Origin: Xylographa opegraphella
Lineage: Eukaryota
Assembly (NCBI GenBank): GCA_022813865.1
Contig: JALDZX010000017.1
Coordinates: forward strand, 62,001 to 126,000
Reading direction: 5' to 3'
Length of the DNA: 64,000 nucleotides
Shown in pieces: positions 31,286 to 61,652 of this stretch. Below the pieces are notes generated by a model that did not search any database, was not told the DNA's origin, and was given only the letters and a program-made list of their open reading frames with translations. Position numbers and translations under genes: made by a program. Every line of letters begins with the position of its first letter. Position 1 is the first letter of the stretch.

Positions 31286-32378
31286 CTACATAAAGTCATC
31301 CTCATCGAAACCGTCCTGATTATTAGCCCTACCTTCCCCATTCACGGCTTCCTCGCCATAGAGTTCCTCCCAGTCCCGCTCCTTCCGCGCCTTCTCCTCG
31401 CGCCGCTCTTTCGCCAGCCGAGCGTCCTCCTTCTTCCGTTTCTGCAGCTCCGCGTTTGTCGCTTTTCTCAGCTCGGCTAGATGGGCGTCTCGCTCGGCAA
31501 GGAGATGTTCGGAGGAAGCTGGTGGGGGTATCTCCGTACGGGTTTTTGTGAGGCGATTGATAATTGCGTTGATGCGGGTGGGAAGAAGAATGCGAATTGT
31601 CTAAGCGGAGAAGATGGTTAGGAGGAGTGAACATAACAGTGGGAAATGAGGCGAAGGATTACCTTTTTGGTGTCGTGGAAAGAGACTTGCCCGACGGCCA
31701 TGCTGCCATCCTTCTTGAGGTTTGACCAGGGTGTGTAGATGACCGTAACATTGTCGCGCTTGTTGCCTGTTCGTAGTGGGGCTTAGCTGGTATTCTGCGC
31801 AAGTCCATATAGTCCATGATAGCTCCTGAGGAGCAAATGAAGCTTAAGAACGGCGTCTTAAAATCATTGCCGTACCTTCAATCGAGTTTGCTTTCGTCAG
31901 CTGTGCGCAGTCCTCCACCAACGCGGCCGGGATGTCCTTCCATGACTGTCCAGGTGGAAGTCGTAGGTAGATGTGCGCGCTGGAGAGGTTGTCCACGTGA
32001 AACTACGATAATCTTTCCATCAGTCATGCTTCTCTACATACTTATTTCATTGCACATTGGAGTCTAAGTTTCTGTGGGCTTCGCTAGACTGGCGCTCTGC
32101 TGGGGGCAAGCATCGCGGGAAAACGTACCCTATCCGCTCAGATCAGTCACCTTGAGGTACATATCGGCAGAGCTAGCACTGATACCATACATCCTCTTCC
32201 CAGCCGTACTTGATCAGCTCTTCATCTGTATCGGCGCCATCATCAGCCAGGAAACTGGTGCCGCTAGGGTAGAATATGTATTGGAGTAGGTCGAGGTGAG
32301 CATACTTTCGAATTTATCTTTTCCGAGGTATAAAGTAAAGGGCGGGTCACTGACCGTGGAGGTAAAGTAGTAGACCAT
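31286..32378 (-). CDS. JLP2: CCDC25/Jlp2-like NFACT-R (DUF814) protein; 6 exons, one of them a single nucleotide
   Basis: [79 protein letters not shown]. Confidence 0.92.
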
Positions 32379-32650: not shown

Positions 32651-33683
32651 ATGGCGGCCCGTCGTGCTCTCCTCCGTGTCCCCAAAAGCCTCACTTCTTC
32701 ACCTCATCACCCTCACGGCTTTCGTAGCCCTCAATTCCGCTCTCAACATAACAGCTCCTCCACCTCCGCCCTCGCCTACAAAGCGCTTCACCGACGTATC
32801 TCTCCCCTCCCCACCGCTGACTCGGCGTCGTCCTGGTCTGCCCCCGCTGCCGTCTCCTCCATTCTCTACGAAACGCCCCTCCCGTCCACTCTCCCCCCAA
32901 AACGACACATCCTTAATTGCCTCGTACAAAATGAGCCGGGCGTCCTCTCACGCGTCTCCGGTATCCTCGCTGCCCGTGGCTTCAACATTGACAGTCTTGT
33001 CGTCTGCAATACTGAGGTTGAAGACCTGTCACGCATGACGATCGTACTGTCAGGCCATGATGGCGTTGTTGAGCAAGCGCGCCGCCAGCTCGAAGACTTG
33101 GTTCCGGTGTGGGCAGTGCTGGACTATACAGCTGCGCCGCTAGTGCAGCGTGAGCTGCTCCTGGCGAAGGTATCGATCCTAGGGCCAGAATACTTTGAGG
33201 AGTTGCTGGCGCATCATAGGGAGATGACAGCGGCGGATGCGTCGAAATTCGAGGAGAGTGAAGAGGGATTCGAGGCCGAGAGGGCCATGAGGGAGGAAGG
33301 CGAGAGGGGGGATTTCCATCCGAGCAGGCTGGCCACGAGTCAGGCTTTGCGGCATAAGCACGAGCATCTAGAGGCAATCACGCATCTCACGCATCAATTT
33401 GGTGGGAAGGTGTTGGATATCAGTACGGACAATTGCATCGTGGAAGTGTAAGTTACATGGTTTGCTTCTGGTGCGGTACGCTGGCTGACTTCATCGGTGT
33501 CGCAGATCTGCAAAGCCTACGAGGATTGACTCGTTCATGAAGCTCATTTCTCCCTTCGGGATCATGGAATCTGCGCGAACTGGCCTGATGGCAATGCCAA
33601 GAAGTCCGCTGCATGGGTCAAGGGAGGAAATTGAGAAGGACGCCGGGGACGTCGTTGACGCAAGCTCTCTGCCCCCGGGATAG
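32651..33683 (+). CDS. ILV6: Acetolactate synthase small regulatory subunit, mitochondrial
   Basis: HILNCLVQNEPGVLSRVSGILAARGFNIDSLVV and RELLLAKVSILG; exon 2 SAKPTRID..ESARTGLMAMPR..LPPG*. Confidence 0.96.
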
Positions 33684-48945: not shown

Positions 48946-51900
48946 TGTAAACAAACAGCAAGGTTCGGACGTGCTATAGCTCTAAAGACGCCTCAACGGA
49001 GTGATACAGTAGACTTCTAAATGGATACGAAAGACTTGAACCTTCAACTCCACAGCGCTGCATGCCCTTCCATCACGAGCCCACGTTCAGCTGCATCGCT
49101 CGCTACTCCACAAAGCGAGACCATCCTCCGTGTCCCCCAAAAATTTGGGCCAATCTGCCACGACTAGGGCTTGAGAATGGGCTCGATGGGCAGAACACAG
49201 GCAGGCCAATCTGAGGAAGCCCCCGGGTCTGAGAGAGAGAGGGAAGTCGACGTTCGAGGATTGTGAGATTATCCAGGCAGGGAAACATGACTGGGACCCT
49301 GAGCGGTCGAAGACAGGTTGTGGTGAAAGCTGAGGAAAGCCCGGTGGAAGTTACGAATCCGGGGAGGTCGACGAGCTTAGGCATCAGTGCCAATTTGGAG
49401 GTATGATTGCTACATCGATAGCCGAGAGAGCTCCGCGCACGGCATCTCGTAAGGTAGCTGGGAGATATCCAGCCCCGAAGAGCAGCCAAGCCCTGAACTG
49501 CTCCAGAGAGACGATCCTCTCTCACAAGCGCCGGATACGGGCCGAACGAAAGCGTGCGAGCCTTGAAATCCAAAAGGATACGAATACTCACTTGCACATG
49601 TGCCATTCGAAGAAAAAAAATGATGACAAGAAAGGGCAGAAGGAACGAACAGCAGAAGAACCCGCTCCCAACCGGCCCGGGCCTCCGGTTCTTCGAATAC
49701 GGGGGGAGTGCAGACAGTGAAAAGCTTCAGGTATCAAAGACCGGGGTACTGTGACAAAGTACGAACAATGATAACGAAAAACCAACAAGCTATGCCTCCC
49801 AGAAGCTTGTCTGCCCCCGCTGGAGTCAGAAAGTATGTCGAGGAACGAGGCTGACGCACCGGTCAAAAGCCACGGTACGAAGTAAGCCGGCGGAACATTC
49901 GACGACGGCCTTTCTGGCGTGATTTCGCCCCGCCCACCGTCTCTCTCTCTCAGTCTATCTCTCACTCTCGCTGGCCCATCATCCTGCAGCTCTAGAAAGC
50001 CGACACCACGAATCCGTTAAGGCCTCCCACCGTGCATCGTCCGATCTGTGACCAACGCCGCTCGTCGCCGATCGCAGCCTGAAACCAGAAACAGGAATGC
50101 GTCGGGGATGAGGCTTCGCGAGCAGGCGTGCAAGGGGGACTTACGAGGTACATCGGTGCGGTTTTGGGGCGAGGAGATGAGAAAGCTCGGATCCTGCGAG
50201 ACGCATTGGCCATTGTTTTTTTGCTTCGCCGTCAGCACATAATCCGTCATTATTGCTGTGGCTAGCCTTTTCCCCCCTCTCTCCCACACACACACCCCCC
50301 TGGCTCCTTCTTAAAACGCCCGTGCATAAGCACTACGCAGATAGGTAAGCTCACGTTCATTGCTCGCTCGCTCGCGAAAAGATTCCGTCTTGTCGAGCAT
50401 GCAAGTACTCCCCGTCCGTACAGCGAAGCAGCAACAGCGCGCTGCTGCACAGGCAGAGCCAACTCACGGCTAGCTGCACAGAGAGAGGAGAGGGCCAAAT
50501 CCACTCCTGATCCTTCCTCTCCTCCTTCTGCATCCCTCCGCATTCAAACATATCCAATCCGACGGTGTTGTCCGACGCCGGTGCCTTACCCACCCGCACC
50601 GAGGTCCTTCTATCCTACCGAAACCCATCACCATCACCGTCCGGTCTGTCGTCTGAAATACCTAGGCAACCTCGGTACTCGTACCTCCGCAGCCTACCCT
50701 GTGCTGAATATCGCCGGCTGGTTGCCCCCCCGGAGCTCGCCCTGGGCCGTAGCAACACCGCAGGCGTGGACGAAAGCACCCCACCTCCCAGCCGCACACC
50801 ATCCACAAGAGGCAAAGACCACCCGCTCGATCTCACGGGCCAGGATGTCAATCCTTCGGCCGTCCTTGATGGGCTGCTGTCCCCCCCCATAAAGCCGCTT
50901 CCGACTCGACAGCTCGGGGACTAGGCTAACGAAGTCGGGCAAGCATTGCGTCCCTTGGAGCGACGGTGCCACGCGCATAAGTGCCTGCGGCATTCCGACC
51001 AGGACTGTCCTCGAAAGGGAAAAATTGGAGGAAGGACATTCCAACTCATCCTAGCCGCAGCGAACGACCCCAGGAGTCCCCGTTGCAATCGGGGTCCAGC
51101 ACCACCGCGACGCTTCCAGGGACAGACTCGGTGAATCCGAAGGCCTTGATGGCCGCCGTCTCGGACCGCGCATCGGTGCAGCCAGGGTCGAGCTTGTTCG
51201 CTCCAGATCCTGAGGGGGGACGAGAGGGAAGGAGCCAACAGCGGTGTCCCCAGCACGTTGTGGCTTCCCTCGGACGTGACGGGGTATCGTTCATGTCGGA
51301 CAGTGGACGAGATGGGGTTGGGTGCAAAAGGATGTTCACGACGATCGGTGTCGGACGTGGCACAAGGCTCGGAGCGGTGCGAGCCCGGGAGCCGCTGGTG
51401 CACGGGTACAAAAGGCGAAGGGAGATTTCAGTGCCATGGATGGAACAAGGGCATTTGATGGATGGGAAAGGTGAGAGTCCGTGGCAGGATGGGGACACGA
51501 CACGGGCCCCGACTCGCGAAGAGTGGATGATGGGACGACGTCCCGATCGGGTGGAGGACGGCTATCTACGTGATGCAAAGGTTGATGTCGCACAGCCAAG
51601 GATCCATCCCCGCCATGGTGTGAAACGTGACGCCTCATCTCCGCCGATGCAGCCGCCGCCAAAAGGGAAACGGCCACGGGAGAAGGTATGGCTCGAGAGT
51701 GCACGTGTGACGCCGACCGGGCGCTTGTTCACCACAGCCAAAAGCAGTCGGATCAGGCAACTGAGCTTAGAGCCCGTCTCCTCTACCGTTCTAAATCCAG
51801 GAAGCTCTCTACCTAGAGGCCGCCTTCCCAATGCCCGTTCCGTCATCATCGTCTTTTGCACCCAAGCGTCTCCGCTGCCAACACACAGCCGCCGCAAGGC

Positions 51901-51992
51901 ACACTGCCGCTCCATCGTAGATACACGGAAGCGATTTCAGCGATAGCAACAAGCCACCAGAAACACGCGAAAGAGCACCCGGTTCCCCTCGC

Positions 51993-52013
51993 GAGAGAGA
52001 GAGAGAGAGAGAG
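51993..52013. repeat. (GA)n microsatellite
   Basis: About 10 GA units, directly visible. Confidence 0.9.
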
Positions 52014-52123
52014 GCCATACACACCCCACATCACCTGAGTCCAGCCTCTACCGTGTTCATTCTCCTCCTAGCCAGCGATTGCAAGCCACGGAGCGTCAGC
52101 CATTCCCATGATAGTGAAAGTCG

Positions 52124-54732
52124 TTACATTTCCGGCGGCATTTCCTCCTCGATCTTCGTGTGTTGCATCTCGTTCCCGCCAGGCATGCCCATGCTCATAA
52201 CGCCATACATGCCTTGCCTCATTCCCGTTCCTCCCATCATGTTCGCCACCGGCGCTCCCTGCATCAGTTGCTCGTGTTGCTGCTGCTGACGGAGCTGTTC
52301 TTGGTTCTGTGCGTCGGACGTCAACGGTGGTGCTTCGTCCTTCATGCATGAATTCTCCAGCATGTTGGTCCATTTGCCACTCGTGCCCCCGTGACTGTGT
52401 TTGAGATGTTGCCTGAAATGATCTGCGCGGAAGAACTTTTTGCTTTGGTTGCATTCACCAAACTTGTGGATCGTAGTCAGGTGGTTGCTGCGAGCCACCC
52501 AATCCTGGATTGGGAAGTTGGGGAATTGTTCACCGCAGTATCCGCACACATCGTATTCTGCCGGCATGCCAGGCTGCTGTGGTGGAGCGTGGTTGGCATT
52601 CGTGTTCGGAGGGATAGCATTGCAAGGATGGAAGGCGGCTTGGTAGTCTCGGTCGAGGGTAGCACAGGACCACGAGTGCCGCCGGAGATGGAGCGAGTTT
52701 TGATGGCGCTCAGCCTCGTTCTTGTTTTTGAAACGGTTGTGACACCACTGGCAGGCGTACTGCTTCTCGTTCTGATGATGTCTGTTTGGATGGATTAGCC
52801 CACGTACGTCGAAACAACGAGGTGTCTGTTGTGATCCCTACCGAAGCGCTTCCAAAGTGTCAAACTTCTTCGGTTTTTTGGGGCAGCAGTTACAGATGTG
52901 CAGGTCTGCCTGCAATTTGGGCGCGTTGGACGATGCGTTGCGGGACGCGTTTTCGGCCGACATTTGTTGGGCCAGAGCGGCAGTGGTCTGAATGTCCGCA
53001 TTAATGTGGTGTGGATGGGACATCGGATCTTGAGGGACGGAGTTGAGCGGCGGCGATTTCACGTAATGCAATTCACGACCGTCGTGTTGTTCGGATAGTG
53101 GTGACAGTCCGCTGGGCGAAGAACGCTCGTGTGACGACAGGCTGGTGATGCTGCTGCTGCCGCCAAACGACAATGCAGCGGAGGACGCGTACGAACCGTT
53201 GAGTAATCCCCCCGATGAGGCTGGCGAGACAGAGCCGTGAGATGGGTGGTATCGATGAACGGGGGAAGCGCGGGTTGCTGAGAGGTGGCCCGAGGTGCGA
53301 CGCTGGTAAAGCTCGCTACTCGTGCCGCCAACAGTCTGCAGCGGGGTTTTGCTCTCGTGAGTGGCGTCTCGTGGTGGCGACGAAGCCCTGCGTTTCATTC
53401 CTGATCGTGAATTCGGTGAGTGCACATCTATACTTGGGGGTGACCGATCATCGAGGTGGAGTTGTCGCATTCCACCAGTTTCTTCGATGGGAAAATCCAG
53501 GTCGAGGTCCGGCTCGTTAGTCAAAAAGCCTGAGTCGGAGCTTTCGCCTCGCTTAGACCTGCCCGCCCCGCTAGCGCGCCCATCCTCGAATGCACCGGTG
53601 ATGATACTGCCGCTGCTGTCGGCGCGCCGGTTGGGAATTCGCACTCGTGCAAAGTGCTCGCCGTCGGAAGCAGAGGATGGCGACTGCACGCCTTCCAGGA
53701 TGGGAGGGTTGCGGTACTCCTTGAAACTCTTCGCATTTGCCGCGTGGGGGATGAGACTGGGAGAAACGATGGCGGATTTGGGGCTACTGATCCACTTACT
53801 ACCAAACGGTGATCCCACCTTGAACGGGGAGTCGGACGATAAGCTGAACGATCGGTCGGAGAAGGACAGCGAACTGGGCGGTGGTGGGGCTGGCTTGGAC
53901 GATGGACGATATGGTCCTTCTGGTATGGGTGACATGTCCGCGCTCCCTGACGTCGATGACCGTGGTGGTGTTCTGGGCTTGCCGGCAAACTTGGTGAGTA
54001 GATGCTTGTCATAGGCGTGGGATGAGTCGGTGCGATTTTGTCTCTCGAGGGGCCGTTCGCCATGAAGACTGGAATCAAGGGTTCTAAAGTCAGTATTCTT
54101 ATCTGACACCGTCCCACATTGTGATGCTTGCGGCTGACTCTTCGAAACAAAACATTCGCAGCGAAGACCCACGCCCGATGTTATTCTTCTAGAGCCATAC
54201 CGAACCCCCGACAGCTCTCCAAACGAACAAAAGCATGAGCAGTGGTAGGGAGAGATTATACTGACTGGTACGCAATACTTGTGCCCGAGAGACTGTGATA
54301 TCCTTCGTCGATATCGCTTCTGGAAGGCGATCGGATCGTGGAGGTCGAGCTATCACGCCGTGCTCCGCCAAGATCATCCAATCCCATTTCCACCTCTTTG
54401 CGCATAACCCAGCTACCCTGCGATATGCTTGACCGCGGACTCGTAGGCCCGAATTTATTCCCAAACTCCCCCGGTCCACCACTATTCCCCCACTGCCATC
54501 CTGGATCTCTTCCCAGTGCAATATCTTCGATGTATCGGGGTGGAGGAAGCGGTGGAGGAACGGAGCTCCCCCGGGAATTAGGGATGCAGACCGGCGCCGC
54601 CGAAGTCGAGAACGGTTGCGAGGCATTCGACGAGGAGTATGAGGACGCTCGACTGGAGAAATGATGCGGACCATACGCATGGTGATTGTCCGGGCCTGAG
54701 ACCCGTGGCGACGAAACGCGAGGATTTGCCAT
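52124..54732 (-). CDS. C2H2 zinc-finger protein (putative transcription factor); 3 exons
   Basis: Ser/Pro-rich N-terminus (PPPLPPPRY..DPGWQWGN). Zinc-finger region CNCCPKKPKKF, CQWCHNRFKNKNEAERHQNSLH, CGYCGEQF and CNQSKKFFRADHFRQHLKHSH. Confidence 0.88.
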
Positions 54733-55120
54733 GGCGGCTTGAGGTCGCCACGAGCTGAAACGCAAGGAGCAAGCAGTAGAAACAATTGCGCCAGCGCTAC
54801 ATGCAAAACGGAGTCAACAGACTTTGCGGTGGCAAGAGAAAGGAGCACTACAGCGTCAGCGCAGCGGCGACGGAACGGCCGCGAAACAACGTGCGGAAGC
54901 AGATGGCGGAAATGTGGGCACCAAAGAAGCGGATTGCTGCGTAACGGTCGTTAAGGCTGAAGCGGGTTTTTCGTCAATTAATTTGGGGTCGGCCGTGGAG
55001 AAGAAGAAAAGAAAAACAATTGGCGACAGGGTCGATGCAAGTCAACCCTACGGGGACGAGCAAATGTCGGACTCGACAAATTTAAGGGATTTTCTTCCAG
55101 GGTTTTTGAAGGGGGGGGGG

Positions 55121-55135
55121 NNNNNNNNNNNNNNN
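55121..55135. other. Assembly gap (15 N) after a poly-G run
   Basis: N characters in the sequence. Confidence 1.
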
Positions 55136-58100
55136 GTGGTTTGGTTAGGTTAAGGAAACGTGGGTACAGCTGGACACTTTATCACTCCGTTACATGGGAC
55201 GAATAGGTTCGACTTTGTCGCTACCAGCGTTCGACCTTCCCTCACTGCTTCGCGTTGTTCGTAGTTACCGTTCGTAGGCGTGCGTGGTGTGGTGCTGACC
55301 GGCCTTAGAAGCTCCCTACCGTAGACTACCGTAGGAGCGTTCGAGGAAGGTACCTTATTAGGTGCTTGGAGGTGGGGTTGCGCCGAGCAGGGGCTCGTGG
55401 CTGGTCAGCCCTATGGCACCATCAGGATTCTGGCTTTTGTTTGGCGCAGACACCCCCCGGCCGGAAAGGAAAAAAAGAAGGTCTCACCGTTTGTTCGAGA
55501 AGTCAAAAGGCTGCTTTCCTTACCTGGCCTGAACCTGACCTTAACTGCTCCTCCACCACGCTTCCGCTCGCGGCACACTAGGGATGCGGCACGGGTGTCC
55601 GAATTGGGATCCCGTCGGCCTGCCTTATGCTGGGAGTCGATACTATGAATAAAGTCCGCTCACGGCCGTTCCGAAGTCCTTGCCCGTCGTGGCCAACGCA
55701 GATTCTGTTGAAGGAAATACCTCGCTCGATTCCTCCGGTGCGGGTGGAACGGCGACGTGGACGTAACGCCAGACTGTCACTCGCAGGGTTTTGGGCCAAC
55801 GCCGTCGCAAGATACCCTACCTGGGTGCGATGATCCGATGCACAGATGAATCCGGCACCGACCACGCTCCTTCGTCCTATCCTGATCCCGGCGCCCACAC
55901 AATTCCCGCGGACCGTAACGGTTTGAAAGGGGGGGGAAGTGCTCCGTCACCGACACCCAGATCGCCAATGCAGGTTCCTCGAGGGAGTCGTGTCTTTCTT
56001 CACTTTTCTTAGGTTGCGGCCTGGCCGTGCATGGAAAAGTCGAACTCTTTTGGCAGGAGGATGGATGGTGTGCGATCAAGGCTTCAACAGTGCAGGCTTG
56101 TGATCCGATGCCCTAATGACAACATGGGTCGCCGTTGAAGCTGTGTCCCCGCGGCGCAGCGGGTTGGCCTTAAGATGCTTTAGGGCAAAGCCCACGCGCT
56201 AACGGAAGGCGAGGGCGACGACCCCTGATAGTCTGCCCGTCCGAGCAAGGATCAGCTTCGTGGGAAGGGGGGGGGTTTCCTTCAGTCCGTCGCTCTTGGC
56301 GTGGCTTGGCGCTCTGGCTGTAAGGATGAGATTAGCCACCAGAAGGAAAATCAAGAGTTGGATGTACGGATAACGTGCTGCACTGTAAAGTAGATTTGCC
56401 CCGCGATGTACGGAGCCAAACGCTCTCCTATCGGCTTTTCCAGGTCCCTTCGCTACACTCTCGGCCAGCGGCACTCGGATCCCGCACCGAGGACTAACTC
56501 CGTGCTCTTGGTGCAGATATGAGGGGCCAATGGCTCGTTCGAAAAACAAGCGATCTCGCTCCGAGAGGATCTTGCTACGGAGTGGTGGCGAAGACGTCGG
56601 TCGTGCTGGGTGGGACGGAGCAAGCCGGGCGAAACATGGTCGTTTGGCGAAGATGTGCGAGAGGTCTTATAGTCATCGCTTCCTGAAGGATTCCTGAAAG
56701 CGCCGTCCGTTGTGTACCTCAGGTGCCCAGCTAGCCCGTACGGAAACAGGCTGATCAGAATTCGGGTCCGGTAAGGTAGTCTAGCGAATCTTTCGCCTTT
56801 GCCTTGCCTTACCTTACCGCCTGATTGAGATCATGACCATCAGCCCTCCGAGGCCGAGGAGGCTTAAAGCAATTCAAAACTCTCTTTGAGTACCTTAATC
56901 ACGTCCTCGGGCCTCTCTCGCGTACCCTTCCCAGGCGACGGCGATTCGTTCCCAGTAGCCGGTGCATGGACCCACGGACACATTCTCCCACGTCTGGATC
57001 CACCGGTGTCTCAATTTGGCCCCATTATGCCTGTTGAATCCCCTTTCCCCCTCGTCCTACAGCCGTAAGCCAACAGCCCTTCGTTTGCCCGCGTAAGCAC
57101 TATGGAAGATCTCAGTCACGGGCCTTTTCCTGTTTATGTCTCTACTCCGTTCGGTCAGCCATCCTGCATGACTGCGGTGGGAAATCCTGTAAACATCGTG
57201 TACGGCGAACATGGACCTTGCTGGGCACCACCGACTCACCATCCGTCAGCCTAAAACCAGCGTCGACCCTGTACGGCAAAACCAAGATACCCACGCTTAC
57301 ACGGATTAGATAATACTCGCTGCATAAGGTAGGCTACGGGTGGTGGAGTGTACGGGTCCATGACAGACTTTGGACTAGGGGGAAGCAAGAGGTCGATCAA
57401 GCTCATAATTTCAAGAAACCCCAAAAACCAATACCATAATCAATGCGCGTCTTGCATTAGGATGCCCACCCGATCAGAAACCGGAGCACGCTTGTGCATA
57501 GATCTGAGCGGTGGGCAAGGACCCATTTGCCAATCGACCCGGGCAGCGCTGGCACTCTTCAGCTGGTGACGGCGAGCCACGTGGGACATGAGACCTGTCG
57601 CACGCACGCCGCACGAACGAGGTGGACTCAACAACTGGGGGGCAGCTCCCAATATTATCTTATTAAAAGCTTTGAAAGCCTGCATCTCCGCCAGCCACAT
57701 CCCCAGGACCGGGAGCGAGCTTCTCGCGGGCAAGGGCTAGAACGAGCGAGTGAGTCCCTGGAGGGTCCAGGGCTGGAGCACGATGTCGTCGAGAGCCATC
57801 ACTTTCTCAGCTCTCGTCGGCAAGGTCGCACCGGGCATGATAAGTAAGGAATCTGACGGTGCGAGCCTCGAGAGACTAAAATAGACAGAATCGACGCGAA
57901 AGGGAGCGAGGGGGAGGGAAAAAGAAGGTTAGACGGATACCGTAGGGCCGGTAAGGCTGTGAGCCAGTGGTTGGCTGGCTGCGGGGGGATTATTGTTTAG
58001 GGGGGGTAAGGAGGGCTGGATCGCTGGACGGCGGCGGCTGTGTCGAACAAAGGGTGCGGGAGGGTCAGCGGCAAACCATGCCGGTGGAAAGAAATGCGGA

Positions 58101-58454
58101 TGACGAGACGGGGTCACGCAACATGATGTCTCGACGCCTGACCCAATCGCTGCACGCACCACGCAAACAGCATCCAGCAGCCTTTCGAACAACTGCGCAC
58201 ACGCTGCAGAAGGTAAGCCGGAGGCAAAACACGGCACTACCTTCACCGGAGGACTACTACCTTACCTTACCTTAGCTACCTACCTTATCCTCCTATCCGG
58301 CGGTGGGGTCGAGATCCGCGTGTCTCTCAGGCGGGCAAGGGTTCCCTCCCAAACCCCCAGAACAAAATCTACTCGGTAGACCAAAACTCAGCAGAACCAA
58401 GATCCCACACACGCTGCATCATCACCCGTCCAAGAATACATGTCAACAACGAGC

Positions 58455-59833
58455 ATGGCGCTGGATCGCATCCCAGGCGACGCCGAACTGTACATCGGAG
58501 GGTGAGTTGACACACACACACACACACTCACGGGGCAAGAAAGAGAAAAAACACTCTCCCTTCAGCCCCGCCAGGTCGACAACGCCCTAACCTTGAACAA
58601 ACCCCCAAAACAGCCTGTTCTCGCTACGCCGCTCCCAAGCCCTAAAGAACGCCCGCATCACTCACGTCGTCTCCGCGCTGCGGCTGCCCTTGGACGAGAG
58701 CCTCTTCCAGCCTTACCGCCATCTGGTCGTCGAGCTGGACGACGTCGACGACGAGGACGTCCTCCAGCATTTCGCCACCAGCAATGCGTTCATCCGCGAC
58801 GGGCTCGCGGGTGGCGGGGGCGTCTTGGTTCATTGGTGAGTTGTGCTCTTCGCCACACGGGGGTACTGCTGTACCACCCACCTTTTCTGGCGCGCGGCCG
58901 GAGCAAAATCTGAGAGGGAAAAGAAAAAAAAATTAAATTAAAATTAAATTTGCAAACTCCAATCTCAGTCGCCGAAACCCCGTTTGCAAGTTGAATGTGC
59001 TATATTTAGAACACGCAGCTCCAATTTCGCCTCCCATCTTGCTTTTGCCACCATGAACGACACCAGAGAATCACGAGAGACTAACATTCTCGCATAACAG
59101 CGCAATGGGCAAATCCCGCTCCACGACGCTGATAATCGCCCACCTCCTCAGCCTCTCCCCCTCGACCACGACGCCCGCGTCCGCGCTGGCCACCGTCCGC
59201 GCGTGCCGACCGATGGCGGAGCCGAACGCCGGCTTCATGCAACAGCTGGAACTCTACCACCGCATCGGCTGTCCCGCCGACGTCGCCGCGCACCCGCTCT
59301 ACCAGCGCTGGCTCTACCAGCGCGAAGTCGAGCGCAGCATCGCGTGCGGCCGCGCCCCGGACAGCATCCGCTTCGGCGACGAAGAAGAAGGAGGAGCCGC
59401 CCCCGCTGACGACAAAGGTGCAGACGAGGTCGAGTACCGCTGTCGCAAATGCCGACGCGGCCTCGCCACATCCGCTTACATCATCGCACACACCCCCAAA
59501 GCGGCGGCTGGCACGAGCCGAAGCCGCGACAGCGGGCCCATCGCCACGTTGCAAAGCCCAGCGGCCACACCGGCCGCTGCTGCCCAGTGCGCGCACCTCT
59601 TCCTCGACCCACTGTCCTGGATGCGGCCGGAGCTGGAGCTGGGCAAGCTGGACGGCCGGCTCGAGTGCCCGAACCCGAAGTGCAGGACCAACGTGGGCAA
59701 GTATGCGTGGCAGGGGATGAGGTGTAGCTGCGGGGGCTGGGTCGTGCCGGGCATCAGTCTCGCGCGCGGCAGAGTGGATGAGATCAAATCGAGGACGAAA
59801 GGCCTGGGGGAGAGACCGGGAGGGAAGATGTGA
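58455..59833 (+). CDS. YVH1: Dual-specificity phosphatase Yvh1; 3 exons
   Basis: LYIGG, ITHVVS, catalytic VHC|AMGKSRS spanning intron 2 (58837-59100), EPNAGFMQQL, and a zinc-binding domain RCRKCRR..CAHLF..WQGMRCSCG. Confidence 0.95.
58510..58527. repeat. (AC)n microsatellite in YVH1 intron 1
   Basis: About 9 AC units, directly visible. Confidence 0.85.
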
Positions 59834-61652
59834 CGCCTTTCCTTTCATCTTTCGAAAGATCTTGGACTCGCACGAACGTGCATGAAGATACATTTGATCG
59901 GGTGTTTTTTCGGCGGAAGATCATGTTCATAACGATGAGGCGACTGGAACACCCAGAACGTTTGCACGCTCACTCAATTCAGATGAAGAATATCCCCAGC
60001 CCGACGTCCATACGAGTATGTCCACCAACCCCCGTGTTGCTAGCTGACATCAAACACGTACGCGGAATATGCCGGCGACAACAAGTGGCGAATGCTCTTG
60101 TGAGTCACGGAGAGGTAAAGAAGCACGGTGAGACACGATATCCAGGAAAAATAATGGATATAAAAGCGTGTTTGATGCATCGACAATTGATACCATGAAT
60201 ACATGCAGGCTGGAACCGTTGACCCAAACACGTAGGCCCTCCAAACAATCTCTCGTAGCTCCACCACACACCCCCTCATCCAATAAGAAAATTTGCGCTT
60301 CGGTGTTCTCCCGTATCGGCGTTTTACCTCTCTAGTCACCCCTCCACCGAACCAGCCGGTCACAAAGTGAACGACTGCGCGCGTGTGGGGGCTGCATTCA
60401 GGGCATTCGCCATTTATTGTGATTCATGTCCGGCTGAGAGGCTTGATAGAGCGCAAGGAATAGTGGTTGATAGGACCGCAGGAAGCGGACGCGCACACAC
60501 CCTCGGTTTCGCTTCCACCTAAGGCCCAGCCTATCAAGTGCTCTGACCCAGCTATTTTTTTCAAGCCGTAGTCTAAACCGCAAGTTGCCTCTCTATGAGC
60601 TGTAGAGAGCCACAAGCTTTGTATGGAGCCGATCGATGTGTTGTGTATCAGAGCGTCGAGGAATCTAACCGGAAAAGATACTGCTCCGAAGATCCTAATG
60701 GCCATGAGTGGACGAACGGCTGTCTCGCACACCTCGTAGTGGAGCTTTTATAGTTCGGTGCTCAAGCAAGGATGATCTCCACTTCAATGCTCACTGCAGA
60801 ATAAGGCCTGTACCAGAGAATCGTCGTCCGGCTACAGCTATGACTGGCTGTTTCGAAACCTTGGCAGGCCTTTTGACCTACACAACAAGCATCCGAAAAT
60901 CACACGAGGCGCCAGTAAAAACCGATGACGAGTATTGAGTTTGGAAGATAATTGTGTATGCCCACAATTGAATTGAGGCAAATCAAAAGTCGAGATGAAG
61001 CCCAAGCGCCATAACCGAATCAACAGGCTGGCAGAGGCAACCTACCATAGCAAACATACAGCTTGCTGGATGTCGGTAATCCGCGAGTTTTGAAATTGCG
61101 GATTTCTAAGCCATCTCTCATGCCAGGACCTATAAGATATACCAAAAGCCCCTGTTAGGATTTCGCCATTAATTTCCTATTGTGTGGAGGCGGGGTGGAC
61201 TTCTTCGGAAGATATCCTTTCATGTGTCGAGAGTGGAACAAGGTCCAGCTTCACATCTCTGGAGCCACTTAACTATCGAGGGTTTGGGCCGGGACTATAT
61301 CCTCGTGATCCCAGATGTCCAATAAAGTTAGACAACCACAGCTTCGAAACGAAGAATGCCAGGGTGTCCTTTGTAAGCCTTAGTCTGTATTGTGATTAGT
61401 CTGCGCCACCCTTTTTCGAGAAAAAGCTGAGAAGAAGCAAATATTGCGTCCGGAATGGCCATTGATAGGAACTCGCGCCCTATAAAGATGGCCCCCAAGC
61501 TCTCACCGTCATGTTCGGCCAAAGGAGAAAGAGGCGCTTAGCATCGTAAGCAGTAACTAATGGCTTCGTGGCAGCTGGCCAATGACGAGCCATAGTTTTA
61601 GAATACTCTGCCCAACTATATAGAACAATCTGAAACGCTTGCTGCAGATTGT

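Follow-up and report, generated by a model that had tools for sequence, protein, structure and literature searches.

A probable one-nucleotide exon completing a conserved tryptophan codon in the CCDC25/Jlp2 gene of Xylographa opegraphella

The question raised by this locus is whether a single G, enclosed by two introns, acts as an exon of its own. A CCDC25/Jlp2-type protein (NFACT-R_1) is encoded on the minus strand at positions 31286-32378 of the window, the 64-kb stretch of Xylographa opegraphella DNA that was analyzed; by taxonomy look-up, X. opegraphella belongs to the Lecanoromycetes, order Baeomycetales. Within the conserved sequence DVWFHVD, the coding sequence is interrupted in such a way that the upstream exon ends in phase 2 and the downstream exon starts in phase 0, so that the two exons do not match in phase. 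A first-pass annotation of the same DNA had proposed that two complete introns abut at this point, separated only by the G at position 32129. The coordinates, donors, branch motifs, and acceptors of this layout were all confirmed (Table 1). The G also had the coding role ascribed to it: joining of the six exons, with the G included, yielded a 219-aa protein in which this base completes the Trp codon of DVWFHVD. A single base is thus located between two introns that each have a GT, a branch motif, and an AG. The putative branch A, in both cases within the motif CTGAT, preceded the 3' end by 13 nt in intron A and by 17 nt in intron B.

Table 1. Features of the CCDC25/Jlp2-type gene of X. opegraphella, in transcript order; positions refer to the window.
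Feature	Position	Strand	Remarks
Exon 1	32306..32378	-	ATG at 32378; MVYYF...KDKFE and first base of Asn codon; same as P0001
Intron 1, 80 nt	32226..32305	-	Donor GTATGC, CTGAT branch motif, acceptor CAG
Exon 2	32186..32225	-	Ends with the Asp and Val codons plus TG of the Trp codon (GAT GTA TG)
Competing donor GTATGG	32185..32190	-	Spans the Val codon, the Trp bases of exon 2, and the initial base of intron A
Intron A, 56 nt, phase 2	32130..32185	-	Donor GTATCA, branch motif CTGAT, acceptor TAG (GTATCA...GGATAG); old phase-2 position in this gene
Probable one-nucleotide exon, G	32129..32129	-	Third base of Trp codon in DVWFHVD
Intron B, 126 nt, phase 0	32003..32128	-	Consensus donor GTACGT, branch motif CTGAT, acceptor TAG (GTACGT...ATCGTAG)
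Exon 4	31876..32002	-	Begins TTT CAC GTG GAC (FHVD); His equivalent to catalytic His of yeast Jlp2
Intron 4, 109 nt	31767..31875	-	Donor GTACGG
Exon 5	31663..31766	-	
Intron 5, 62 nt	31601..31662	-	Weak donor GTAATC, CTAAC branch
Exon 6, including stop codon	31286..31600	-	Coiled-coil tail, C-terminal end DEDDFM

All single introns with GT-AG or GC-AG boundaries, together with every pair of introns enclosing a micro-exon of 1-12 nt, were enumerated around the junction. Removal of positions 32185-32003 as one intron shifted the frame, as had been claimed, and led to a stop at codon 73. The accompanying implication that no single intron could preserve the frame was not upheld, since an in-frame intron of 188 nt (32190-32003) exists. 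Among the solutions enumerated, only two left FHVD contiguous with exon 2 without introducing foreign residues. One consisted of 56 nt, the G, and 126 nt, and gave DVWFHVD; the other was the 188-nt intron, running from the GT of the Val codon to the acceptor of intron B, and gave D-FHVD, in which V and W are deleted. The remaining in-frame candidates, some with a single intron and others with a micro-exon of 7, 10, or 12 nt, were rejected, as they inserted unrelated residues into DVWFHVD or deleted FHVDNLSS.

The product of the 188-nt intron is exactly the annotation that has been deposited for X. opegraphella (P0001), which matches the 219-aa model letter for letter once V and W are removed from the latter. 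As the deposited annotation corresponds to an in-frame intron, the choice to be made is between a one-nucleotide exon and the loss of V and W, rather than between a one-nucleotide exon and a frameshift. The absence of the two residues from P0001 also agrees with the expectation, expressed in the first-pass annotation, that gene predictors would mis-model this gene.

At +5, the donor of intron A (GTATCA) does not have the G that is usual there; it is found 5 nt downstream of GTATGG, the donor of the 188-nt intron. With its G at +5, GTATGG appears closer to the fungal donor consensus than GTATCA. In view of the weakness of donor A, some or most transcripts could use the upstream GTATGG. A weak donor also occurs in intron 5 of the same gene (GTAATC). 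An intron training set derived from the window by chaining long ORFs was discarded; it comprised 23 candidates, most of them false, and misplaced the known intron 5.

The motif AGGGTRNGT, which describes the junction of the two introns around the G, occurred five times in the 64-kb window when both strands were counted, versus 2.6 occurrences expected from shuffled sequence. By our own arithmetic, it would be found by chance in a given 183-nt stretch in approximately 0.7% of cases, a figure that precedes the extra demands of a branch motif and of a donor that coincides with an established intron position. No further copy of intron A or intron B was detected in the window, and the only sequence shared by the two introns was an 8-mer at the branch motif. 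An introner-like origin of these introns was rejected, as no other copy was present within the window.

P0001 scored 107.1 bits against the Pfam domain NFACT-R_1 (PF05670; cut-off 29.8 bits), with the domain at its N-terminus, and CCDC25 chains in the PDB matched its relative P0023 with an E-value of 5e-63. The conserved His of FHVD, residue 40 of the model derived from the window, aligned with residue 41 of human CCDC25 (PDB 7eof_B). In yeast Jlp2, release of the peptide from peptidyl-tRNA on stalled ribosomes is reported to require H44, which is described as orthologous to H41 of CCDC25 (preprint 10.1101/2025.09.04.673968). Such release, on stalled 60S subunits, has been reported for Jlp2 only at the preprint stage. 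Judged by homology, the protein encoded in the window is a CCDC25/Jlp2 orthologue and a predicted ribosome-rescue factor. Inclusion of V and W raised the NFACT-R_1 score by 10.4 bits (119.1 versus 108.7 bits, and 118.6 versus 108.2 bits). In a 32-row alignment, W38 was retained in all rows except two V,W-less annotations that had been added, and conservation of this Trp was 90% or higher. In the structure predicted by AF2 for P0023 (mean pLDDT 75), V37-W38-F39-H40-V41 formed part of one strand. The model suggests that V and W open the β-strand bearing the His that has been reported as catalytic in yeast Jlp2.

To what extent the V,W-less form occurs in other sequences was apparent from a set of 308 proteins, obtained in three protein searches and consisting of 161 proteins with an NCBI record and 147 unnamed ORFs. 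V and W were missing from 87 of the 161 NCBI gene models versus none of the 147 unnamed ORFs, and 28 more of the NCBI models were otherwise aberrant at the junction; since the query of the third search was itself V,W-less and may have enriched for such hits, these fractions describe a query-biased sample rather than a census. All 13 full-length, uninterrupted unnamed ORFs contained xW-FH. One of these sequences, P0023 (212 aa, on a 980-nt contig), differed from P0022, the annotation of Exophiala dermatitidis (210 aa), solely by the additional V and W. Since the genome of E. dermatitidis must have intervening DNA at this site, the uninterrupted P0023 is best read as cDNA. Based on their lack of introns, a cDNA origin is inferred for the unnamed uninterrupted ORFs in general.

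The four uninterrupted ORFs that were nearest to Lecanoromycetes (P0042, P0219, P0241, and P0261) all retained [VI]W. Three of these were full length, while P0042 covered only the first 93 residues and was 85% identical to the model from the window. Among annotations of named lecanoromycetes, a clean DVWFH was found in none of 31, nor in any of 10 further ones, with genera placed in classes by their general classification and, for Xylographa, by look-up. Such an absence would be expected if no canonical single intron yields DVWFH.

Additional information on the junction was obtained from 138 unnamed ORFs that had been called on raw contigs in public collections. In 80 of these, [VIL]W directly preceded FH, while the other 58 started inside, or passed through, intervening sequence. 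For 20 of these 58, the end of exon 2 (..AY RTN TGG) could be located. For 14 of the 20, a phase-0 donor was impossible and a phase-2 donor fitted, while the acceptor was in phase 0 (CAG or AAG directly before TTT); these ORFs thus showed the same clash of phases as the gene in the window. Their nearest named relatives were Exophiala, Aspergillus, Cladonia, and some Dothideomycetes. Other placements revealed different arrangements. P0009 and P0027, whose exon 4 was 100% and 95% identical to that of Aureobasidium, respectively, fitted one 61-nt phase-0 intron (TGG|GTAYGA), and V and W were present in annotations of Aureobasidium. P0132 was compatible with one phase-2 intron. In P0119, just 34 nt separated the codons, and two of the 20 placements were rejected as spurious pattern matches.

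Back-translation was used to examine whether the 14 ORFs with clashing phases could accommodate AG|G|GT. In all 14, this arrangement was possible with both introns at least 40 nt long (48-61 and 44-85 nt), versus 2.8 of 14 expected from residue shuffles. Both CTRAY branch motifs could also be fitted in 6 of the 14, versus 0.46 expected. As several of these ORFs are interrelated, clearly so for P0103 and P0116, the product of the shuffle probabilities overstates the significance. For AG-N-GT in orthologues, these 14 of 14 cases indicate compatibility at the level of back-translated amino acids, not the actual bases. Ophidiomyces ophidiicola is represented by two annotations, with W-YVFLG... at the junction in one and W-VREM... 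in the other. From their sequences, these would be reconcilable only if a phase-2 intron ends in ...AG before G GTN CGN.

A scan of metagenomes with P0001 as query returned 26 loci, of which 18 contained the FH..SAH motif. In 13 of these 18, [VI]W and FH were contiguous. The remaining five (L016, L017, and L020-22) had a canonical phase-2 intron within the Trp codon (tg|gt...ag|G TTC CAC). In all five intron-bearing loci, the position of the donor was that of intron A in the window. These loci represent three kinds of eukaryotes, L020-22 being near-identical to each other. The loci closest to X. opegraphella, L024 (90% identity) and L025 (86%), began downstream of the junction, at residues 76 and 74, respectively. 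A search with a degenerate DNA pattern identified a fungal contig (L027) that lacks an intron here and encodes an uninterrupted DVWFHVD; the same pattern gave no match in viral contigs. No relative was confirmed in a protein scan of genome contigs. In the annotation of Lasallia pustulata (P0233), 63 nt between W and F had been read through. These 63 nt fit one phase-2 intron with donor GTAYCAY, CTRAY 15 nt from its end, and acceptor AG|G. The donor suggests that another lecanoromycete also has a weak, GTATCA-type donor at this position. Judged from these comparisons of sequence, intron A is at an old phase-2 intron position that is common to distant eukaryotes.

If the one-nucleotide exon is constitutive, removal of both introns would give GTA TGG TTT CAC, encoding V W F H. 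Each intron could be recognized by intron definition, the usual mode for short fungal introns, through its own donor, branch motif, and AG. With a 3' and a 5' splice site only 1 nt apart, two spliceosomes could hardly assemble at once; simultaneous assembly on both introns is unlikely, so that their removal would be successive. A fixed order of splicing, which the first-pass annotation had considered to be required, is not demanded by the sequence, as GT, branch motif, and AG remain intact in either order. If intron B were removed first, intron A would subsequently face ...TAG|G TTT CAC, and if intron A were removed first, intron B would face GTA TGG|GTACGT; both are normal contexts. The predicted products of mis-splicing have a premature stop when the G is skipped (codon 73), when intron A is retained (codon 42), or when intron B is retained (codon 53). 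Splicing from the donor in the Val codon to the acceptor of intron B is predicted to give the in-frame, V,W-less protein.

Two complete introns around a single G, which completes the conserved Trp codon, very probably explain the locus best. Its competitor at the protein level would be a single, ordinary intron of 188 nt, with the V,W-less product as the real protein and the internal AG-G-GT as a product of chance. Such an intron is in frame and has canonical GT-AG boundaries, its donor has the G at +5 that is missing from GTATCA, and its product matches P0001 exactly and shares its form with the 87 of 161 NCBI gene models mentioned above, which come from many fungi. This agreement among gene models did not extend to unnamed ORFs: the V,W-less form was found in 0 of the 147 unnamed ORFs and 0 of the 13 uninterrupted full-length ORFs, and the annotation from E. 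dermatitidis is contradicted by the uninterrupted P0023. Moreover, Trp was present in every sequence that is intronless at the site (13 of 13 metagenome loci, L027, and the 80 ORFs in which the codons are adjacent). Loss of the two residues would remove the start of the strand that bears the catalytic His and lower the Pfam score by 10.4 bits, and a 188-nt intron would leave unexplained both the branch motifs and the compatibility of 14 of 14 related ORFs with AG|G|GT. It is considered distinctly improbable. A mixed outcome, in which the mRNA with the one-nucleotide exon is functional while G-skipped (frameshifted) or V,W-less forms arise at a regulated rate and tune the level of the protein via nonsense-mediated decay, follows a suggestion of the first-pass annotation; it is speculative and regarded as unlikely. 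The stops at codons 73, 42, and 53 and the competing donor, located 5 nt before the weak donor A, would be consistent with such tuning, although premature stops result from mis-splicing of intron-containing genes in general and, by themselves, are uninformative on regulation.

Two further readings dispense with the second intron. If the assembly had dropped a G from a GGG run that follows TG, the true gene would read TGG and then have just one canonical 183-nt intron, in phase 0, and a homopolymer error of one base would produce exactly the phase mismatch observed. However, the combination of a phase-2 donor with a phase-0 acceptor was also found in the 14 ORFs, which originate from other projects, and 41 of 41 annotations from Lecanoromycetes fail at the junction. 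An assembly error would, in addition, leave the internal AGGGTACGT and the branch motif upstream of it as an unexplained coincidence, and it is very hard to reconcile with these data. Alternatively, a single intron with non-canonical boundaries, either GT...TA (32185-32004) or TA...AG (32184-32003), would give TGG TTT without a micro-exon, since a shift of the boundary by one base in either direction results in the right mRNA. Boundaries of this kind, which do not conform to GT-AG, are very rare, which counts against this solution; a canonical solution with two introns is available, and its internal signals recur in relatives. The probability assigned to a non-canonical intron is very small. 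We infer that the G is retained in the mRNA of X. opegraphella, that splicing is successive, and that the introns were gained in the order outlined below.

Intron A would be the old phase-2 intron, with intron B gained one base downstream within the Pezizomycotina. As the phase-2 intron is common to distant eukaryotes and the phase-0 acceptor was found only in Pezizomycotina-like sequences, intron B was probably gained next to intron A. Intron A appeared to occur alone in Lasallia and P0132, intron B alone in Aureobasidium-like sequences, and neither intron in L027 and others; later losses of introns would account for these three states. The one-nucleotide exon may then be an ancient feature of CCDC25/Jlp2 genes, created when a new phase-0 intron arose one base past an older phase-2 intron and kept since near the origin of the Pezizomycotina in Lecanoromycetes and Eurotiomycetes, and probably also in Sordariomycetes, Leotiomycetes, some Dothideomycetes, and Pezizomycetes. 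This broader reading is tentative and is given slightly less than an even chance of being correct.

If the exon is indeed ancient, it would be the most widely conserved one-nucleotide exon known, and over half of the sampled public gene models would be without two residues next to the catalytic His. Lineages that lost either of the introns would mimic a 'slide' of one nucleotide, which would represent a second route to such shifts, besides stwintrons. With four apparent states (no intron, phase-2 intron only, phase-0 intron only, and both), intron sliding can be tested against neighbouring gain and loss on one gene. Structural or functional work based on V,W-less models would start from a wrong sequence. 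With respect to splicing, 3' and 5' splice sites that are 1 nt apart would have to be used accurately despite a competing donor 5 nt upstream. The gene is also present in genetically tractable fungi.

Literature searches yielded no paper on the intron layout of CCDC25/Jlp2 or on a one-nucleotide exon in this gene, nor any that links CCDC25, Jlp2, DUF814, or NFACT to stwintrons. The first-pass annotation had described one-nucleotide exons as rarely reported and had named APC11 of Arabidopsis. This precedent stands, while their rarity has to be qualified by fungal cases in print, in Fusarium CYP621A (PMC12940212) and in 13 genes of Coprinopsis (PMC12230235). In Arabidopsis APC11, a single-nucleotide exon was shown with GFP fusions in protoplasts (PMC4674806). 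Like the exon proposed here, that of APC11 is described as a constitutive exon of 1 nt between two spliceosomal introns that was mis-annotated at first. APC11 is, however, a plant gene, and its account, as consulted, does not relate the exon to an old and a new intron at neighbouring positions. The long-read annotation of Coprinopsis cinerea lists 13 one-nucleotide exons, distributed over 13 genes (PMC12230235). These cases indicate that fungal spliceosomes handle exons of 1 nt and that gene models break without them, although Coprinopsis is a basidiomycete and the accessible part of that report gives genome-wide counts only.

In Pezizomycotina, loss of one intron has been described as the source of canonical introns that, in orthologues, are located one nucleotide apart, as part of work on [D1,2] and [A2,3] stwintrons (PMC5587772). 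The similarity to those stwintrons, as reported, is that two short introns meet at a G within a conserved coding stretch. Unlike stwintrons, the introns in X. opegraphella are complete and neither overlap nor are nested, and the G would stay in the mRNA. The first-pass annotation had rightly distinguished two abutting introns from a nested stwintron, both GT and AG being intact. A stwintron reading was rejected, as no donor, branch motif, or acceptor is interrupted and neither intron is located inside the other. At ratchet points, which occur in long animal introns, a 3' splice site is directly followed by a 5' splice site and the two are used in successive steps. Ratchet points involve an exon of zero length and very long introns, whereas in the gene studied here one G would be kept between short introns. 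The junction in X. opegraphella is not a recursive splice site with a zero-length exon, as the G at 32129 separates AG from GT and is needed for the frame.

The single-nucleotide exon of the CYP621A P450 genes of Fusarium, which has the sequence AGGGT and was confirmed by SRA reads (PMC12940212), offers a further comparison. In both systems, an exonic G is located between AG and GT inside a conserved motif of a fungal nuclear gene, the exons on either side differ in phase, the DNA between them has approximately twice the usual length of an intron, and automatic annotation misses the exon. Within its codon, the G takes the middle position in CYP621A (Gly) and the third position in CCDC25/Jlp2 (Trp). 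The exon in CYP621A is described from one genus, whereas a layout compatible with the exon proposed here was found in several classes of Pezizomycotina. A further difference from CYP621A, as described, is that the upstream intron in the CCDC25/Jlp2 gene occupies an old position common to distant eukaryotes. One-nucleotide exons are thus already known as a kind, to which CCDC25/Jlp2 adds a case that is apparently widespread.

Gene models of CCDC25/Jlp2 that lack Val and Trp before Phe-His were found well beyond the lichen-forming relatives of the gene in the window. In the third protein search, whose query itself lacked these two residues and may have enriched such matches, V and W were absent from 57 of the 91 new proteins (P0224-P0308). 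These sequences came mainly from Sordariomycetes (Sporothrix, Thermothelomyces, Chaetomium, Verticillium, and Xylaria) and from Pseudogymnoascus; close relatives such as Hypoxylon and Biscogniauxia retained both residues. The same junction problem therefore probably reaches the Sordariomycetes and the class of Pseudogymnoascus. No unspliced ORFs from these classes were seen among the proteins of the searches.

Two Lecanorales-like uninterrupted ORFs (P0241 and P0261) read GWDCD-IW-FHAD at the junction, and annotated proteins of Cladonia, Lepraria, Puttea, and Psora (P0091, P0051, P0223, and P0306) read GWDCD-FHAD. If Ile (ATH) is also encoded in the genomes of the latter four, its codon does not contain a GT, and the junction in the annotations would have to be explained in some other way, such as by a micro-exon arranged differently. 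In a raw ORF, P0119, apparently only 34 nt separated the Trp and Phe codons. Such a gap is too short for an intron, and P0119 falls outside all four intron states of the junction (none, phase-2 only, phase-0 only, or both).

Within the CCDC25 gene of the window, intron 5 has a non-consensus donor, GTAATC, without G at +5, which indicates that weak donors are tolerated in this gene. The ATG of a divergent ORF lies approximately 270 nt away from that of CCDC25, an arrangement in which a single short promoter region would serve both genes. Base composition also varied, with a GC content of 0.55-0.60 in one segment versus approximately 0.45-0.50 across most of the window.

Positions of features in the window and of an additional fungal locus
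Feature	Sequence	Position	Strand
CCDC25 intron 5	window	31601-31662	minus
CCDC25 start codon	window	32378	minus
Divergent ORF	window	32651 onward (ATG at 32651)	plus
GC-rich segment	window	50001-60000	
Locus with fungal CCDC25 gene	L027	1-3035	minus (of locus)

A degenerate DNA pattern located an intron-containing fungal CCDC25 gene on a 1.15-Mb contig (L027) filed as a Bryobacterales bacterium MAG. The gene starts with MVYYF, carries an intron after KDKVE, and encodes DVWFHVD without interruption; the contig probably belongs to a fungus and was sorted into a bacterial bin.
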